64,000 nt of DNA from Minisyncoccota bacterium (lineage in GTDB: Bacteria > Patescibacteriota > Minisyncoccia > Phycocordibacterales > UBA2100). Shown in pieces: positions 35,264 to 46,272 of this stretch. The position numbers were made by a program, and so were the translations under genes. The notes beneath the pieces were generated by a model that was not told the origin of the DNA, ran no database searches, and worked only from the letters and a program-made list of their open reading frames with translations. Each line of letters begins with the position of its first letter. The stretch's first letter is position 1. The DNA lies in assembly GCA_022842645.1 (NCBI GenBank), contig JALHPE010000002.1, positions 1,322 through 65,321 of the forward strand. The letters run 5' to 3'.

Positions 35264-35266
35264 TCT

Positions 35267-35488
35267 ATGCACACGTTGCCTGGGGATTTGCGAGCGGCGC
35301 TCTTACAGGCGCCGCGCGCCAAAGCCACTTGGGACAAAACCACGCCCCTCGCCAAAAACGATTGGATTTGTTGGGTAATCTCCGGGAAAAAAGCAGAAAC
35401 CCGCGGCATTCGCATTCAGAAAGCCATTTCCAAACTTTCCGGCGGCATGCGCCGCCCCTGCTGCTGGACAGGCTGCCCGCATCGCTAA
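35267..35488 (+). CDS. YdeI/OmpD-associated (OmdA) family protein
   Basis: LPGDLRAALLQAPRAKATWDKTTPLAKNDWICWVISGKKAETRGIRIQKAI. Confidence 0.45.
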   Translation: MHTLPGDLRAALLQAPRAKATWDKTTPLAKNDWICWVISGKKAETRGIRIQKAISKLSGGMRRPCCWTGCPHR

Positions 35489-39105: not shown

Positions 39106-39558
39106 TTAGGTAGCCGGTACGATGCGAGCACCGATGCTTTCGAGATATGCTCGAGATTTGTCAGAAATGCTTCCAACTGTACCAGTCTCAATTGCAAGAG
39201 GCGATGCTTTAATGAGCTTGATGAGTTTGGTCGTGTCGATGCAGCGGTGCACTTTGTGCCAACCGCTCTTCTTCTCGACGCTAACGCCACCACGTATGTA
39301 CCGACCCGTGAACATAATCCCAATCCTGTTGCCTTGGTCTTCGACCGAAACAACCTTGGCGCGATCATAGCCGTAGACCTTACCGCTCGGCTGTTCGGCA
39401 TCTATCCAGATCGTTGCGCCCTTTTCGATTTTGGCGAGTTCGTTGAGCGGAATACATTCGAACAACGCACCAATTTCTCGACTTCGGAAGCCAGTCCATT
39501 TGTTGTAGTACACAACTTCATCGGGGAGTTTTGCAGTATCAGATTTCCTCGTTGCCAT
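39106..39558 (-). CDS. Hypothetical protein, co-oriented downstream of the KAP NTPase
   Basis: 150-aa ORF with GGAGAA RBS. No recognised motif. Confidence 0.4.
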   Translation of the reverse strand: MATRKSDTAKLPDEVVYYNKWTGFRSREIGALFECIPLNELAKIEKGATIWIDAEQPSGKVYGYDRAKVVSVEDQGNRIGIMFTGRYIRGGVSVEKKSGWHKVHRCIDTTKLIKLIKASPLAIETGTVGSISDKSRAYLESIGARIVPAT

Positions 39559-39929
39559 CACTATTCTCCTCGTTTGAGAGCAAAAATCCGCCCCGCAGGG
39601 CAGACTGCCAGCTTTATACCACAAAATGTGAAATACATCAGGTAAATGACGTCCGATTCCTCTTCAGTAGGCCTGAGCCAAGCTGTGGCCAATTTGGCGC
39701 CAAATGAGCCAGTCCTTGGCTCACGCCTGGGCGAAAAACGGCAAGTTTTCTCGCTGTGGGGAGGGGATAGTACACGATAATTATAGCTGAAAGCCAAACG
39801 GCAGGGGAAAGCCATTTGGCAAGTACATGCAGAGAATGCGTAGCTTCTTTAGGTGAGTGGTTTCTTTTTGCTTACTATCTTGCCCCCCGCCCTCTATGGC
39901 AACTTAAATTACACGGAAATCGAGATAGG

Positions 39930-42900
39930 TTAAGCCGCCATTTTCTCAATCCGTTCGTAAAATTCTTTAGAACGTTTATTGACAAGTCCATATTCTAAAA
40001 TGGCATGAGCAGTGTATTTCTGAACTTCTCTACCTTTGCGAGTTAGTTCATCATACACTTTTTCAAAAAGCTGCTTATTATCGGAATAGGTAATATTGGC
40101 TTCCTTTGCAATATTTAAGATACGCTCAACCACTGTTTTATTCTCCATTGAACGCATTAGAATATGATTAATAAGTATGTGACCAAGTCTTTCATACGAA
40201 GCTGCCGTCATTGGTAATTGTGAAATTAATGACAGTGCAGGAGCATAATGGTCTAAGCCCGAGAGGTTTTGATGTTCCAAATATTCAGTCATTGTGCTCG
40301 TAATCTCTTCCATTTCTGACTTGGTGAGATAACCCTGAATTTTGTACTTATACACTAACTCTGTCATCTGTCGTTGATGGTCAGTATTTGTACTCTCCAG
40401 ATTTTTGGTGATTACAGCAACGAGTACTTTTTTGAAGGCAGCTTCATTGAATTTAATCTTTGGCAGTGCAGTCATGAGAGTAATCTTCTCGGGGAAGTTT
40501 TCTCGTTGGGCACGACTTAGTGTGCAGTTAGCAACTAATTCAGGGTTTGTTACCTTCCTTAATTCAGTAAACTGTTCAAGTGCAGCGAGATAATGCGGTG
40601 CATTCTTGATAGTTCGGGCGAGGAAAGATTCTTTGTGTTGTGCGTCAAAATGCGAAGACAATGAGCGAAATACTTCATGATCTTGGAAGCTGCGCGATTC
40701 GAGAATTTCTCTTAAGTTGTCATAAGCAGGACCTGGTTTATTAAGAAAGTCCGTTGCCGACAAGACTTTTTCCAATGTAGATACGGGCGAGGAAGTCAGT
40801 ATCTCATTCGTGTACTGTTTGAGGGGCTCAATGTTGTCGTCATGGTGTTCTACTGCAAGACCTCTCAAAATGAGCAGGTTTGTCGTTACTGCCACTCGCG
40901 GTATCGGATTGTTGTTCTGGTCGTAATTCTGTCTAAGACGAGCTGTAAGTGCTGTAATTTGGTCGGCCGTGACTCTCGAATCAACCTTCTCGAGACTTTC
41001 TCGTATCGCGGTATTTACTATTTCCACTGCTCTGTCGTCGCCAATAGCCGGTTGCTGAGCAGCAAGCTCAGAAAGCTTGTGGAAAAGAGCATTGATAGAG
41101 TGCTCATTAAGAGTTGATTCAGCAGTCAGAACCAATCGTACTTTTCGGAGGAGGGGAGAAGTGGTGATGTCGAGAATGCTCAAATCTGAAGAAGTAATCG
41201 TTCGAACAATTCTCTCTAAGTGTTCATTACGAATATACGCTTTTCGAGCCTTTAGATTGGGTATGAAGATGTCAGCATTATCAAGGTCTTCGAGTAAGCT
41301 ATTTTCTCCTAAGATTGAAGAAATTTCTTCGATTTGCCCCTCGCTAAACAGTTCGGGGTTATCAGAAATCTTTTTGAGCAGTTGCTTCCTATATGTATCG
41401 TCATCTATGTTGACTCTAAAAGCTTCGGCGCGTGCAACACGCTCCAGGAGTGAGACGTATTTCTTTGCAAGCTGTAATCGGTTCGAACCGTTAACTCTGG
41501 GCATCAAGTAATCAAAAAGAACAGGCAATCTAAAGCCCTCAATGTAATGAGTAGATTCGGTTTCTGTTCCCAAGATATATGCCGCTATGCGGTTCAAGAA
41601 ACTGGACGAAAATCCAATATTTTGGACCGTATTATTACTGAAAAAGGTATTAATAATGTTGTAAACTCGTACAGCACTTGATTTAACATTTTCGATATTC
41701 TCAATAATAAATTGCTCTAAATATCTGGGACTGCCCGTTTCTGCTTTTCCAAGCATTTCGGTCACCTTATCGTCGTCACCATCCTGAAGTGCCTCTGTGA
41801 GTTTTTCTGCATTTGTGCTGATGCGTCGCGAGTCCTCAGATTGCTTAAGGAAAATAAAAGGTGAAATATTATTGGTCGTTATAAACTTCGTGCGCAGAAG
41901 GAATCTGTATAGAGAGTCATCCCCTCGATGCTCGAAGCGTTTTCGCAGTTTATCGTCTTCAGGAATCTTATTTTCAACAATGTGCCTATCAACAACATTC
42001 CATAAACCCGGCTCTTGTTTCAGGTCATTGAAAAAATCAGGATAGCGTTGTTCAATGACCATGACTTTTGCAAGCATTTGGATATTTCGAGTTACTACGC
42101 CCCTTGGCTGTAGTATGTTGCCATCATTTTCTCGATGGTGAGCGAGCAAGAAAGAGGAGATAAGAGCATTAATAAATTGCTTAATTTTCCTAGGGTTAGG
42201 GTTATCACGATGAGAAGAAGATATAACCGCGAGCAAATCCGAGCGCGTTTGCTCGTCAGGCATGGGTAATTTGGTTTCAGCAATTAAGCCACCTGTAAAT
42301 CTGTCTAGGTCACCCGCCAATACAGGAGGGATGCGGACATATGTGTTGAAGAATTTTCGCAAAAATTCATCTGTGTACCGTTCTCCTATAGTTTCGGATT
42401 CCTTATTATTCGATTCTTTGTGATAGATATGCAACAAGTGTCTTTTAATCGCTTTCTCGTCGCACTGAATAAGAAAAGCAACACGCTCATATTCCAAGAA
42501 CGTCTTAACGGAAGAAAGCAGTTGTAAGATTTTCTCATCAGAAACTCTATCCAAGTTATCGATGATAATCACTACTTTTTCGAATCCTTGCTTTATTTTT
42601 GCATCAATAATCGATTCAAAGAGCTTTTCGAATTGCTCTGCAAATTCGATACGATGTTCAGTGACTGTTATCTCATGCACCTTCAGGACTCCTTTGGCTG
42701 CCGAGAAGAACCAATCTAGAACTTTGCTTAAAAATTCTTTTGCAAATACCACCGCAATCGCGGTGAAGGTACCGACACCGCCTAAGATTTGCAATATCCA
42801 TTTGTATACAGAATTGACAGTCAAATCAGCTGCGAAAAACATCGCAACTCCAACTGTTGCAATTGCAATTGGTACCAGTAACCTAACCCAGCTGTTCTTA

Positions 42901-43328
42901 TCGGGAGAAAGAGAATTCTGCTGTTCGATGTGGGAGGAAGACTCATATATTTTTTTCAGCTTCTCCAGTCCAGTATTTAGTCCGGTTTTATCATCCAAGA
43001 AAATCAAGAACTGACGGCGAAAGCTGTCTGATTCGTATTTCCAAATATCAAATTCGACAACTGCTGTTTTTGTGGGGTCAATGAATTCTGTGCGCAGTAA
43101 CCTACCGATACCGCTTTTTCCTGTTCCCCAGCTGCCAAAAAGCCCTACCGTAAATGGCCCTTCCTCATGCTTCCATTTTGCAAGTACGTCACCTAAGGTT
43201 CGGGCAACTGACCTGTGTTCAAGAGCGTCATTTGCGGGCTCACTTATCGGCCTATCAGGTAAAAAAGATACGCTTTCAACACCGTCTTGGGGGTCGTTAC
43301 CGTTTTGGGAGTCGTTTTCGGAGGTCAT
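39930..43328 (-). CDS. KAP-family P-loop NTPase (1132 aa) with intra-domain TM hairpin and long helical C-terminal region
   Basis: Walker A LFGSWGTGKSGIG, DIWKYES, Walker B VVIIIDNLDR, and two TM helices (LLVPIAIATVGVAMFFA / ILGGVGTFTAIAVVFA) inserted between Walker A and B. AT-rich relative to flanks. Confidence 0.7.
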   Translation of the reverse strand: MTSENDSQNGNDPQDGVESVSFLPDRPISEPANDALEHRSVARTLGDVLAKWKHEEGPFTVGLFGSWGTGKSGIGRLLRTEFIDPTKTAVVEFDIWKYESDSFRRQFLIFLDDKTGLNTGLEKLKKIYESSSHIEQQNSLSPDKNSWVRLLVPIAIATVGVAMFFAADLTVNSVYKWILQILGGVGTFTAIAVVFAKEFLSKVLDWFFSAAKGVLKVHEITVTEHRIEFAEQFEKLFESIIDAKIKQGFEKVVIIIDNLDRVSDEKILQLLSSVKTFLEYERVAFLIQCDEKAIKRHLLHIYHKESNNKESETIGERYTDEFLRKFFNTYVRIPPVLAGDLDRFTGGLIAETKLPMPDEQTRSDLLAVISSSHRDNPNPRKIKQFINALISSFLLAHHRENDGNILQPRGVVTRNIQMLAKVMVIEQRYPDFFNDLKQEPGLWNVVDRHIVENKIPEDDKLRKRFEHRGDDSLYRFLLRTKFITTNNISPFIFLKQSEDSRRISTNAEKLTEALQDGDDDKVTEMLGKAETGSPRYLEQFIIENIENVKSSAVRVYNIINTFFSNNTVQNIGFSSSFLNRIAAYILGTETESTHYIEGFRLPVLFDYLMPRVNGSNRLQLAKKYVSLLERVARAEAFRVNIDDDTYRKQLLKKISDNPELFSEGQIEEISSILGENSLLEDLDNADIFIPNLKARKAYIRNEHLERIVRTITSSDLSILDITTSPLLRKVRLVLTAESTLNEHSINALFHKLSELAAQQPAIGDDRAVEIVNTAIRESLEKVDSRVTADQITALTARLRQNYDQNNNPIPRVAVTTNLLILRGLAVEHHDDNIEPLKQYTNEILTSSPVSTLEKVLSATDFLNKPGPAYDNLREILESRSFQDHEVFRSLSSHFDAQHKESFLARTIKNAPHYLAALEQFTELRKVTNPELVANCTLSRAQRENFPEKITLMTALPKIKFNEAAFKKVLVAVITKNLESTNTDHQRQMTELVYKYKIQGYLTKSEMEEITSTMTEYLEHQNLSGLDHYAPALSLISQLPMTAASYERLGHILINHILMRSMENKTVVERILNIAKEANITYSDNKQLFEKVYDELTRKGREVQKYTAHAILEYGLVNKRSKEFYERIEKMAA

Positions 43329-43511
43329 GTTGATTAATTCATGAAATCATTCGTTAAACCACTTGGTTTGTCAATTAAGGAAACGAAGCGCTTTTCGAGC
43401 GGTTATGAAGCTATGGGTGGTAGTAGGGTCAGGTACCGCAAAGTAAATACATCATGTTGTAATGATATTCATATCGGAGAGCGCTGCTAGCAATCACATC
43501 AATCGCTTTAC

Positions 43512-43650
43512 TCCGCGGGTAGTCGGCGTCGCCGGAGGCGAACCAGGCGCCTCGTTTTGGATAGGTGCTCGCCACCGCTCGCGCGAATTCTTTGCGAGTA
43601 GACTCGCCACCCAATAGGACTCTCACCCAAGGGTTCGAGTCCAGCCCGCG
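43512..43650 (+). other. tRNA-derived remnant: 12-nt direct copy (43511-43522) and an approximately 23-nt diverged inverted copy (43628-43650) of the tRNA-Asn 3' end, bracketing a hairpin-rich 105-nt segment
   Basis: CTCCGCGGGTAG repeats the sequence at 43701-43712. GGTTCGAGTCCAGCCCGCGGAG mimics the T-arm + acceptor, but its T-stem cannot pair. Confidence 0.3.
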
Positions 43651-43700
43651 GAGGAGTTGCAACAGAAAACGCCCACAAGGGGCGTCTCTGTTTTGCAAAG

Positions 43701-44012
43701 CTCCGCGGGTAGGACTCGAACCTACAACCAACTCGTTACACTTTGTCCCGAAATTTCTTAAGGGGGTGGACTATATCATCATCCTTCGTTCTAAACGGAT
43801 CGGATGCGAGGTGCTTCGGGCGCTTTCGCGCTCTACTCCCTTACGGGATAGTCTCTGAACCTTCTCGTCAATTTTTACATTGACGAGCTCGGCTGCTGAT
43901 TACCCACCGATTAGGGTTTGGGCTTCCAGCAATTCTCCTCGTTTTTCTTCCCGCATTCCTACAGGAAGCTGCCTACTGACAGCGAGCTGCTCTACCATTG
44001 AGCTACCGCGGA
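43701..44012 (-). tRNA. tRNA-Asn(GUU) interrupted by a group I intron between positions 35 and 36 (exons 44012-43979 and 43738-43701)
   Basis: The spliced sequence has a full cloverleaf. U1:A72, G73, anticodon loop CUGUUAA and T-loop UUCGAGU all match bacterial tRNA-Asn. Confidence 0.7.
43739..43978 (-). ncRNA. Group I self-splicing intron (240 nt, no ORF)
   Basis: P/Q/R/S core elements occur in order: AATTGCTGGAAG, AATCAGCAGCC, GTTCAGAGACTA, GATATAGTCC. Exon 1 ends in U, which pairs with G in the P1 guide GGCAGC. The intron ends in G. Confidence 0.7.
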
Positions 44013-44076
44013 ATATACCGTTAATCGCTTAACGGCTGCGGGGCAGTATAGCTGAAAAGCCCAGGATTTCAAACGG

Positions 44077-44124: not shown

Positions 44125-46272
44125 CTACTGAAGCTCCGGCATTGGAATGTTCAAGCTTGCGCAGTGAACCATATTGATCCAACGCTGCGTAGTCTTGAAC
44201 ACATATCCTGTTGGAGTGTTTTCAGGAAGACCAAATGAGCTCCACGGCTTCAAGACTTCGTTTTTGTACTTGAGCTGGAACGCATTCACCGCATTCTCTG
44301 TTTCTTCTCCAAAGATACCGTTTACTTCAAGTGAGAGACCAAGCTCGCTATTCAAGAAGTTTTGCAATTTCTTTACTTCTTCAATATCGTTTGTGCGACC
44401 GATATGCATGTAGGTGGTGATAAGTGCAGAGCAGGTGTCATCTAAGGTAGCGACACCAAGTACATCGCCACCAATCGGATTTTCTTCAGAAGTATCTGAC
44501 TTGCTCTCACAGCCCGGATCGTTCATGTCGTAGAGACCATCGCCGTCGTCGTCGACGTTGTTGCCACAGGCTTTCTTAATTCCTTTCCCAGATGTTTTTG
44601 GGGTCTCGGTGACTTCTGGCTCAGAAGTTTCTTCCTCACCACCCTCGTTGCTTACGCAGTTCGGGAACGTTCCGCTCTGGCCTTCTGGGCACACTTCGGG
44701 CGTTGGTTCGGAGCAGTTTGGAGGCGTTCCAACCTGTCCCTCTGGGCATGTTTCTGGTTCGGGGGTTACGCAGTTAGGGAATACGCCAACCTGACCCTCA
44801 GGGCATGATATGACGACAGGGACGCATGCTGGTGGTACACCAACCGTTCCTTCTGGGCAGACTTCAGGAACCACGGGAACACACGCAGGAGGAACTCCCA
44901 CGGTGCCTTCTGGGCATGTTGGTGGAGGAGGGGTGACGCAATTAGGGGGCGTGCCGGTCTGTCCCTCTGGGCACACGCCGTTTGGTGTCGGGTCACATGG
45001 ATCACCCGTTCCATCGTTGTCGCTATCAAGCTGGTTGGTATTTGCGTGTGACGGACAGTTGTCGGAAGAATCAGGAATAGTGTCAGCGTCAGTGTCTATG
45101 ACTGGTGGTGGAACACATTGCTGCGTGCCAACGTTCCAGGTGTTTGGCGCCAAGCACTGTGCGTCGAGGCAAGGGCCAGCGACTTGCATGCCAGTCACAT
45201 TGGGGCATGCGTCGACTGGAGGTGGTGGCATGACGCATGAGCTGCTATTCCAGGTGCCGCCATCTTGTACGCAGGTGTCATTTGCACATGGTCCTGATGT
45301 TTGAGTACCAGGAACCTGTGGACACGCATCAGGTGTGGGGATGTTGACCTGGAACGAATACACTGAGTCTCCCGAGCTTTCTGCGCCGGGTGGTGTTTGG
45401 TGGTAGAGCTTCACCGTAATCGTGTAGATGCCAGCAGCTGCGTAGGTGATGGAATTACTCCATGTGCCCGTAAAGTTTTTCGGGCCGCCCGCAGGATCAA
45501 TGAAGTTCGTGGTGGAGGTGTTATCAATCACGCTGTTACCCCAGTTCACTTGCACATCATGTGCGCTCAACTGACCAACATAGGGCGTGCCTTCACCAGT
45601 TCCAGTGAGGGTAAGGGTGAGACCCGAAATTGAAACGGGTTGGTTTACAGTAACTGCATAGTTCGAGGAATCAGTAATAGTGATGCCATCGACACGGAAG
45701 TATTCGTCGGAGCTATTGGTATTTGCCTTAAAGCGAAGGCGAAATGTCGTGTTGTCGAGACTGTTCGGAAGGTTGAATGCATTTTGTGTTGTCCACGACG
45801 CATCATCGCGCATGTCGTGATTCTGAAGCTGGCTCCATCCGCTCGCATCAGTGCAGCTTCCCGATCCCGCTTTATATTCGACGATGCCATCATCGGCGTT
45901 ACTGCCAGCGTCGGAGTCGCCGCGCCAATAGTAGGAAAGCTTGAGGCCCTCGCGATTTGCAGCGTTAATTTCGCGACAGATCCACTCACCCTGTGCAATT
46001 TTTGCAAATGCACCGGCATCAGGACTTGCCGAATCATTGCCGCTTCCAGCAGCTTGCGCGAGCGTGCTCGAATCGCTGTCCGTTCCTTCCTCATCCCAGT
46101 TCGGGATATCGTTTATGGTTACGGTGCCGAAGCTCTCTAGCGGCAAGACGGTAATTGCATGTGCAATACCAGGAATAATAGGAGCGAGCGATGAGCCAGT
46201 TATCACGGTGATGATAAACAAACTCAACGCTTTATGCGCGAGAGAACCTCGCAGTTGTGTTGCGTATAACAT
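44125..46272 (-). CDS. Large secreted/cell-surface protein with thrombospondin type-3-like Ca-binding repeats, Cys-rich CPEGxVGxPPxCV repeats and C-terminal PG-binding-like domain
   Basis: Signal peptide. DTDADTIPDSSDNCPSHANTNQLDSDNDGTGDPCD. At least six repeats of the CPEG(T/Q)VG(V/T)PP(A/N)CV motif. C-terminal NGIFGEETENAVNAFQ. Confidence 0.5.
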   Translation of the reverse strand: MLYATQLRGSLAHKALSLFIITVITGSSLAPIIPGIAHAITVLPLESFGTVTINDIPNWDEEGTDSDSSTLAQAAGSGNDSASPDAGAFAKIAQGEWICREINAANREGLKLSYYWRGDSDAGSNADDGIVEYKAGSGSCTDASGWSQLQNHDMRDDASWTTQNAFNLPNSLDNTTFRLRFKANTNSSDEYFRVDGITITDSSNYAVTVNQPVSISGLTLTLTGTGEGTPYVGQLSAHDVQVNWGNSVIDNTSTTNFIDPAGGPKNFTGTWSNSITYAAAGIYTITVKLYHQTPPGAESSGDSVYSFQVNIPTPDACPQVPGTQTSGPCANDTCVQDGGTWNSSSCVMPPPPVDACPNVTGMQVAGPCLDAQCLAPNTWNVGTQQCVPPPVIDTDADTIPDSSDNCPSHANTNQLDSDNDGTGDPCDPTPNGVCPEGQTGTPPNCVTPPPPTCPEGTVGVPPACVPVVPEVCPEGTVGVPPACVPVVISCPEGQVGVFPNCVTPEPETCPEGQVGTPPNCSEPTPEVCPEGQSGTFPNCVSNEGGEEETSEPEVTETPKTSGKGIKKACGNNVDDDGDGLYDMNDPGCESKSDTSEENPIGGDVLGVATLDDTCSALITTYMHIGRTNDIEEVKKLQNFLNSELGLSLEVNGIFGEETENAVNAFQLKYKNEVLKPWSSFGLPENTPTGYVFKTTQRWINMVHCASLNIPMPELQ

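Follow-up and report, generated by a model that had tools for sequence, protein, structure and literature searches.

The KAP gene and its locus

The 64,000-nucleotide (nt) stretch of DNA analyzed here, referred to as the window, belongs to a Minisyncoccota bacterium (GCA_022842645.1, contig JALHPE010000002.1, positions 1,322-65,321, forward strand), a member of the Patescibacteria or candidate phyla radiation (CPR). It encodes a 1132-amino-acid (aa) nucleoside triphosphatase (NTPase) of the KAP family. The gene is most likely a phage-defence gene, which is a credible and fairly ordinary assignment. Set against recently validated single-gene KAP defences, it differs in the layout with both membrane helices inside the NTPase domain, the longer HEAT-like tail, and the CPR host. 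Coordinates are window positions, and residue numbers are those of the KAP protein. Features are listed in Table 1.

The neighbours of the KAP gene are a 150-aa open reading frame (ORF150), a 117-aa ORF, a Zn-ribbon protein, a VTT/DedA protein, a tRNA-Asn gene, and a 715-aa predicted surface protein. Housekeeping genes flank the locus and encode TrhO, a DedA/VTT protein, HPF, fmt, def, and MreB. The precomputed Pfam hits of called genes from about 29 to 56 kb include no integrase or transposase family, in line with the lack of an integrase noted in a first-pass annotation of this DNA.

At least three sequencing runs have yielded Logan contigs with an identical KAP gene sequence, and one such contig occurs in nine samples. 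Logan contigs that include the KAP gene, ORF150, or the 715-aa gene all match the window at 100% identity. No alternative junction that would mark an empty site, i.e., a strain without the KAP gene, is present among these contigs, and thus no presence/absence polymorphism could be shown.

The NTPase domain and membrane hairpin

The protein is a bona fide member of the KAP family. The Pfam profile KAP_NTPase (PF07693) matches residues 54-389 with 103.9 bits (cutoff 20) and an E-value of 1.2e-29, covering profile positions 17-286 of 293. The Walker A, DIWKYES, and Walker B motifs of the first-pass annotation are located at residues 65, 94, and 254. The last of these, IIIDNLDR (residues 254-261), includes the DNLDR family signature. 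The protein thus scores above the curated profile threshold and possesses a Walker A of the form GxxxxGK[ST], a Walker B of the form hhhhD with DNLDR, and transmembrane (TM) helices within the NTPase domain, the features by which the family is defined.

Conservation is strongest at the nucleotide-binding motifs. Walker A residues G68, G70, and K71 are invariant across 70 homologues. In Walker B, D257 is conserved in 99% of homologues and D260 and R261 in 100%. Most of the invariant or near-invariant columns of the family fall within the Pfam domain, namely W67, G68, G70, K71, D260, R261, K275, D290, E321, K325, F327, and R380.

Using Kyte-Doolittle windows of at least 1.6, only two hydrophobic segments are observed in the protein, at residues 148-166 and 178-196 (peaks 2.15 and 2.03). 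Both lie between Walker A and Walker B, where two TM helices had been claimed. An AlphaFold2 (AF2) model, built on an alignment of 70 homologues, agrees and places helices at residues 144-167 and 173-192. In the model, a two-stranded stalk (strands 131-142 and 215-224) projects from the NTPase core and bears the helical hairpin. The hairpin has a low predicted local distance difference test score (pLDDT), as expected because it is a membrane segment. Among 97 homologues with both Walker motifs located by regular expression, 96 show the same two-helix arrangement between Walker A and B. A hairpin in this position should tether the ATPase to the membrane on its cytoplasmic side.

KAP NTPases were reportedly described by Aravind and colleagues in 2004 as having two or four TM helices inserted within the NTPase domain. 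A preprint places the KAP TM helices outside the P-loop domain (PMC13001434), which conflicts with that description.

The C-terminal region

The first-pass annotation described a helical C-terminal region with no recognizable domain, and the models agree. The AF2 model is all-helical from about residue 390 to the C-terminus, and Pfam matches no domain C-terminal to residue 389. The full-length model has a pLDDT of 86.9 and a predicted template modelling score (pTM) of 0.63. A model of residues 422-1132 has a pLDDT of 91.5 and a pTM of 0.76. The first part of this region is a module conserved in the family at A396, E400, K421, F476, T480, and F491. The remaining ~610 residues are confidently predicted to form a HEAT/ARM-like alpha-solenoid. 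A profile search of the PDB with the KAP protein returns designed helical repeat proteins, and Foldseek matches include RdrA of the RADAR system.

Family conservation is concentrated in residues 1-500. No invariant polar residue is found beyond residue 520 in the homologue alignment. Searched alone against 1.84 billion representatives, the last 612 residues recover seven proteins, of which six are ~1100 aa in length and five had previously been found as KAP homologues. With no invariant polar residue past 520 and few C-terminal homologues, the tail is therefore read as a fast-evolving binding surface rather than an enzyme. A solenoid that has no conserved polar residues and diverges rapidly is what would be expected of a recognition domain. 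A C-terminal enzymatic effector was also considered and was rejected, as the region has no Pfam domain, no conserved polar residues, and no enzyme fold.

Base composition

The first-pass annotation judged the gene to be AT-richer than its surroundings by eye, and the computed values agree. The GC content is 0.405-0.412 in three 1-kb windows at 40-43 kb compared to about 0.51 elsewhere. In a fine profile, the low-GC tract spans about 39900-43480, and GC returns to about 0.50 immediately past the KAP stop codon. The KAP ORF has the lowest GC of the 61 ORFs in the window (0.414, z = -3.0). GC at its third codon positions is 0.399 (z = -1.9).

Codon usage follows the same trend. The distance between the KAP gene and the pooled genes is 0.192, compared to 0.10-0.15 for other long genes, and is ~2 standard deviations over the mean when size-matched. 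Among leucine codons, TTA accounts for 0.20 in the KAP gene versus 0.04 in the pooled genes and CTC for 0.16 versus 0.43. The arginine codon AGA is used at 0.23 versus 0.06 and the alanine codon GCG at 0.14 versus 0.35.

As a sign of acquisition, composition stands only in part. The gene looks foreign in the window, but low GC is family-wide. In all six homologue loci inspected (L091-L096), the KAP gene is 5-13 GC points under its own flanks, mobile-element flank genes included. Because low GC is common to all six loci, it provides no clock and is weak evidence of recent transfer. Candidate causes of the family-wide AT bias are amino-acid composition, expression control, and a shared low-GC gene pool.

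Homologues and their genomic contexts

At least 300 metagenome clusters match the KAP protein. Many of these are 1050-1140 aa in length and align over the full length with 24-56% identity. Source names, given for a minority of clusters only, include Omnitrophica, Cloacimonetes, Saccharimonadales, a Heimdallarchaeota bin, and Lacibacter (Bacteroidota).

Several homologues are found on mobile elements. P0002 (56% identity) is located between two large serine recombinases, together with AAA_25, helix-turn-helix (HTH), and DUF5677 genes. P0005 adjoins a large serine recombinase. P0009 is part of a tRNA-Ser island with an EcoRI-type methylase, GmrSD/HNH, an excisionase-like HTH protein, and an integrase. 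P0021 is found in a tRNA-Ser island with a tyrosine integrase, and P0011 is located 292 nt downstream of a tRNA-Asp and near IS200. P0008 is at a contig end. No partner gene recurs across the six KAP homologue loci, and the KAP gene therefore appears to work alone, as its earlier description as a stand-alone gene had it.

Other relatives share only the N-terminal ~530 residues. Such relatives, QatA included, are present in 57 records of a plasmid collection and on 13 viral contigs of IMG/VR. No homologue of the KAP protein is found in cultured phage genomes, and a BFVD search gives no match besides the KAP domain.

The tRNA-Asn gene and the variable slot

The tRNA-Asn neighbour claimed for the KAP gene is a real gene, though it is split by an intron. 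ARAGORN calls no tRNA near the KAP gene in the window DNA because the tRNA-Asn gene is interrupted. Rfam Intron_gpI matches 43747-43972 with 61.2 bits, and in silico removal of 43739-43978 restores a canonical tRNA-Asn(GUU), which ARAGORN calls at 44012-43701. The intron is ORF-less and is inserted in the anticodon loop after U35. The 3' end of the tRNA is 372 nt from the KAP start codon. An intron-containing tRNA-Asn is also found in a Kaiserbacteria metagenome-assembled genome (MAG) at L005:17143-17459 (75% identity). Four relatives (L016, L008, L009, and L011) have an intron-less tRNA-Asn at the matching position. No bacterial group I intron in tRNA-Asn is reported in the literature covered by a full-text search.

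Relatives were identified by an fmt-based scan of genome contigs, which returned relatives of at most 70% amino-acid identity only, with synteny past the tRNA already lost. The closest are Patescibacteria MAGs, namely H51-bin041 (70%) and a Kaiserbacteria MAG (64%), plus Minisyncoccia and Paceibacterota MAGs. The gene order MreB-def-fmt is kept in relatives, and HPF-(surface protein)-tRNA-Asn is also kept in several. In L016, L008, L009, and L011, tRNA-Asn sits after fmt-HPF. At the equivalent site, all fetched relatives lack a KAP gene.

The KAP gene occupies a variable slot behind tRNA-Asn. Past the tRNA, a conserved OmdA-like gene (35264-35485 in the window) is reached after 1.0 kb (L008), 1.3 kb (L009), 3.3 kb (L016), and 8.2 kb (window). 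The L016 slot contains three lower-GC ORFs with no assigned function. Immediately behind tRNA-Asn, L005 carries a large serine recombinase of 532 aa and a rolling-circle Rep gene of the Phage_CRI type (L005:17446-20090), and the recombinase stop codon falls within the T-stem of the tRNA. This segment looks like a small element integrated into tRNA-Asn, although a far end could not be located. Given the variable slot and the serine-recombinase element of L005, the 3' end of tRNA-Asn is therefore an integration site in this lineage, as the first-pass annotation proposed. Horizontal acquisition of the KAP gene, also proposed there, is supported by composition, by absence from all fetched relatives, and by homologues on integrative elements.

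Copies of the tRNA 3' end are found beside the gene, as had been reported, and comprise a 22-nt inverted copy (43632-43653) and an exact 12-nt direct copy (43511-43522). They are part of a conserved non-coding element and not of the insertion. This element is 81% identical over 125 nt to L016:14581-14704, while the fmt proteins are just 70% identical. In each genome it terminates in that genome's own tRNA-Asn acceptor 3' strand, CCCGCGGAG in the window and CCCGGGGAG in L016. Homology between the window and L016 ceases exactly past this acceptor-strand copy, at 43511, and the KAP gene is 182 nt further on. The variable DNA, with the KAP gene, therefore starts at the att-like core. Because the repeats belong to an element conserved in L016, the element predates the KAP insertion.

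The non-coding element may be a miniature integrative-element remnant serving as a landing pad, or it may be a small RNA. Rfam has no match for 43511-43653 at E<=1. A metagenome scan with a 20-mer of the element recovered the L016 contig only, giving two examples in all, and a consensus fold built on two sequences is uninformative. The element (43511-43653; L016:14560-14704) opens with a degenerate T-arm-like stretch (GGTGAGAGTCCTA). Hairpins that differ in sequence occupy the matching position of the element in the window and in L016.

The far side of the insertion has no att-like copy to pair with the one at 43511-43524. No third copy of the tRNA 3' core is found even at 3 mismatches. In a search for a direct repeat or target-site duplication across the flanks, the single shared word is a 10-mer, a match that chance alone could produce. 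The gene resembles a tRNA island in that it adjoins a tRNA 3' end, is foreign in composition, and is absent from relatives; an integrase and an attL/attR pair are lacking.

Table 1. Features of the KAP locus, in window coordinates.
Feature	Coordinates	Strand	Basis or remark
KAP-family NTPase gene	39930..43328	-	1132 aa, stop codon within coordinates; ORF list, Pfam PF07693
KAP P-loop domain, residues 54-389	42162..43169	-	Pfam match; holds most (near-)invariant family columns
Walker A GSWGTGKS, residues 65-72	43113..43136	-	Motif position
TM hairpin inside NTPase domain, residues ~146-196	42741..42893	-	Hydropathy peaks, AF2 helices
Walker B VIIIDNLDR, residues 253-261	42546..42572	-	Motif position
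Conserved helical module after Pfam domain, residues 390-520 (~130 residues)	41769..42161	-	Family-conserved positions; plasmid and viral matches end near residue 530
Variable HEAT/ARM-like alpha-solenoid (predicted), residues 521-1132 (~610), proposed sensor	39933..41768	-	
Promoter-like site TTGACA-17-AATGAT	43346..43374	-	~18 nt 5' of ATG; consensus scan, 10/12 positions
Upstream spacer found only in this genome	43329..43510	-	Fine GC profile; L016 homology stops at 43511
Distal copy of tRNA-Asn 3' acceptor strand (GACTACCCGCGGAG), att-like, boundary of variable DNA	43511..43524	-	12-nt exact copy
Non-coding element between tRNA-Asn and KAP insertion (~120-145 nt)	43511..43653	-	Context, not cargo
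tRNA-Asn(GUU) split by 240-nt group I intron (43739-43978)	43701..44012	-	Rfam, ARAGORN on spliced sequence
Downstream spacer between KAP gene and ORF150	39585..39754	-	Terminator scan, inverted repeat

Comparison with known systems

Four KAP NTPases that act as single genes and have a C-terminal region of unknown function have recently been found to protect against phage (PLoS Biol 2026, PMC13552941). These are EF_KAP of Enterococcus faecalis and three gut-metagenome proteins (PMC13552941). Protection by EF_KAP requires both Walker B and the C-terminal region and is reported not to act by abortive infection (PMC13552941). The protein studied here fits this class. It is likewise encoded by one gene and combines a KAP NTPase and membrane helices with a C-terminal region that has no known domain. 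EF_KAP has one N-terminal helix, one helix within the domain, and a 322-aa tail (PMC13552941). By description, the present protein differs from it: both of its helices are inside the domain, and its ~740-aa tail has a HEAT-like solenoid. Unlike the single-gene KAP defences of that study, its host is a CPR bacterium. The KAP defences of the study are linked to serine recombinases, and the bait used was small serine recombinases, not large ones (PMC13552941). No recombinase is found in the window among the Pfam hits at about 29-56 kb; the two nearest homologues are beside large ones, and L005 has one at the equivalent tRNA.

Defence profiles match the N-terminal third of the protein alone. PADLOC returns QatA (6.5e-24), PifA (9.5e-12), and PDC-S20 (2.4e-6). 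These matches stand as N-terminal matches; membership in QatABCD, PifA, RADAR, Tmn, or Avs does not follow from them.

QatA is the best hidden Markov model (HMM) match of the KAP protein. The NCBIfam QatA model (NF041923) matches with an E-value of 3e-29 but with 102 bits versus an equivalog cutoff of 600, and at the N-terminus only. No qatB, QueC-like qatC, or TatD-like qatD is found nearby, and the gene is not assigned to QatABCD. QatA forms heptamers or octamers (PMC13279940).

PifA of the F plasmid is responsible for T7 exclusion. Like the protein studied here, it is a single-gene product with a KAP domain, which its profile matches at residues 23-390. PifA is carried on a mobile element and has a membrane-level effect on infected cells (PMC13001434). 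It is reported to lack TM helices and to cause membrane leakage upon T7 infection (PMC13001434). The present protein possesses TM helices, and its C-terminal part is unrelated. The match is confined to positions 6-314 of the 720 of the profile with no full-length similarity, and membership was rejected.

RdrA of RADAR is composed of an ATPase and a variable helical lobe proposed as a sensor (PMC9994260). The order of ATPase and helical lobe is shared, and the fold search returns the RdrA rings 8hrb and 8fnt (E about 1.5e-4). The TM-scores are low (0.17-0.27), and RdrA is soluble, unlike the membrane-inserted KAP protein. With no PADLOC match to RdrA, no RdrB deaminase gene nearby, and weak fold similarity, RADAR membership was rejected.

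Tmn is a single-gene defence that senses a phage protein and raises ATP turnover (PMC13001434). It shares with the KAP protein two TM helices within the P-loop domain. Tmn belongs to a different NTPase family and has no large accessory domain, and no PADLOC match to Tmn/YobI is found at E<=0.01.

STAND/Avs NTPases combine an NTPase switch with a repeat-rich sensor, which in their case recognizes phage proteins (PMC13001434). The KAP protein shares this layout. It differs from them in its NTPase clade, in having no separate effector domain, and in a membrane anchor formed by an insertion in the NTPase. It matches no Avs or NACHT HMM and is not a member.

Proposed function and alternatives

It is reasonably probable, on homology and context, that the KAP gene is a horizontally acquired, stand-alone anti-phage immune gene of a CPR bacterium. 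Relatives of the gene travel on recombinase-bearing islands. In the proposed mechanism, the solenoid would be the sensor and would bind a phage protein or guard a host complex. Binding at the solenoid would then switch the ATPase. The active form would probably be a ring oligomer, by analogy with the heptamers or octamers of QatA and RdrA. A nucleotide-driven change might halt phage replication through the membrane hairpins or through the ATPase itself. The output might be leakage of ions or nucleotides, as with PifA, or a drain on ATP. The outcome could be abortive, as the first-pass annotation suggested, or non-abortive, as reported for EF_KAP, the only single-gene KAP defence so far characterized (PMC13552941).

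Several points weigh against a role in defence. The PADLOC and NCBIfam defence matches are confined to the NTPase third. There is no recognized defence gene, integrase, or flanking att repeat pair around the KAP gene in the window. The low GC seen in six of six homologue loci may stem from the gene itself and not from recent transfer. HEAT solenoids are generic scaffolds and are also compatible with non-immune roles. The KAP family is also said to include non-defence members, e.g., Kidins220/ARMS, among those described by Aravind and colleagues in 2004. No trigger can be proposed because the phages of CPR bacteria are poorly known.

The gene could instead be mobile-element cargo, stranded after loss of the recombinase, that served to exclude rival elements or phages or in PifA-like element maintenance or addiction. 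The closest homologues lie within elements with large serine recombinases, AAA_25, and HTH genes; others are in integrase-bearing tRNA islands; N-terminal relatives are carried by plasmids and viral contigs; and L005 has such an element at the equivalent tRNA. This explanation is nonetheless unlikely. No element surrounds the KAP gene, yet it is intact and identical wherever it was recovered in the sequencing runs and samples, and no toxin-antitoxin-like partner is present. It also overlaps largely with defence, since phage exclusion is defence.

The assembly and disassembly of membrane protein complexes under NTP control was the general role first proposed for KAP NTPases. A cellular, non-immune membrane scaffold or regulator, in which the HEAT solenoid assembles or disassembles a membrane protein complex in this manner, is quite unlikely here. 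HEAT/ARM solenoids are classic scaffolds, and housekeeping genes flank the KAP gene with no defence neighbour in the window. This role is at odds with the patchy spread of the family over unrelated phyla with full-length similarity of just 24-56%, and with the absence of the gene from all fetched relatives despite conserved adjoining synteny. The foreign composition, the very fast evolution of the C-terminus, and the homologues embedded in mobile islands also argue against it.

The isolation of the gene, with no integrase and no far-end att repeat, might indicate an inactive relic of a decayed island that has no current function. That is highly improbable for a 3.4-kb ORF that is uninterrupted in AT-rich DNA, keeps all invariant family residues, and has a fold predicted with high confidence.

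Joint action with ORF150 (39106-39558), proposed in the first-pass annotation because of the adjacent and co-oriented genes, is hardly credible even though the 150-aa protein has no known family match (Pfam, PADLOC, NCBIfam). ORF150 is 371 nt downstream of the KAP gene, beyond two terminator-like hairpins, and has a host-like GC of 0.50. A related neighbour is found in none of the six KAP homologue loci. Homologues of ORF150 (50-75% identity) are present in three other genomic contexts, none beside a KAP gene. ORF150 is thus a gene of the lineage and was rejected as a partner.

For the favoured anti-phage reading, a wider proposal can be put forward tentatively and is, taken as a whole, less likely than not to hold in full. 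The ~1100-aa 'KAP-HEAT' proteins may be a distinct and widespread class of membrane-tethered, NLR-like pattern-recognition ATPases, i.e., one-gene immunity spread by recombinases. The hypervariable solenoid would recognize phage proteins, and the TM hairpin would be the effector, with no separate effector domain. Serine- or tyrosine-recombinase elements would carry the genes into tRNA genes. Such genes might offer compact immunity to genome-reduced CPR bacteria, most of which lack CRISPR. Going by the source names available for a minority of the matches, the class would span Patescibacteria, Omnitrophota, Cloacimonadota, Saccharimonadales, a Heimdallarchaeota bin, and Bacteroidota.

Should the KAP gene prove to be a defence gene, the few immune systems known from CPR/Patescibacteria would be joined by a one-gene, membrane-anchored sensor-ATPase. 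The homologues define a large uncharacterized subfamily of about 1050-1140 aa that joins a KAP domain to a HEAT-like solenoid. A mechanistic question is raised for the whole KAP class (PifA, QatA, EF_KAP), namely how a membrane-hairpin ATPase turns recognition by a repeat domain into protection. The discovery is incremental because annotation of the family and an experimental demonstration of single-gene KAP defence (in 2026, PMC13552941) already exist.

Other features of the locus

The promoter-like site upstream of the KAP gene is a consensus match only, and the regional number of such sites is not above shuffle expectation. A shared motif, (G)CTTTCAGCTATAMT, is present on the reverse strand at 39780-39794 and 44045-44059, upstream of ORF150 and of tRNA-Asn. 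It may be a native promoter element; the count of matches in the window is not above chance.

The terminator-like hairpins of the downstream spacer are located at 39741-39754 and 39585-39606. Between them is an imperfect 60-nt palindrome (39669-39728) with 30-nt arms that are 80% complementary. Logan contigs break at two places, 43703-43732 in the tRNA 3' exon and 39694-39703 in the middle of the palindrome. Contigs L002 and L003 on the KAP side and L084-L088 on the ORF150 side stop within 10 nt of the palindrome center (39694-39703). One assembly, L001, crosses the palindrome uninterrupted. The contig ends are probably a sequencing or assembly effect of the hairpin; less likely, the palindrome is a recombination site.

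In a relative (L111:1354-2556), an AbiEi/AbiEii toxin-antitoxin (abortive infection) pair is located directly upstream of a 68%-identical ORF150, in the position held by the KAP gene in the window.

The 715-aa predicted surface protein is encoded on the reverse strand at 44125-46272. It has a thrombospondin type 3 repeat and a C-terminal peptidoglycan-binding domain. Its gene contains six to seven tandem 57-nt repeats at 44645-44973, each encoding a 19-aa unit of the type CPEGxVGxPPxCV. The C-terminus alone is conserved in L016.

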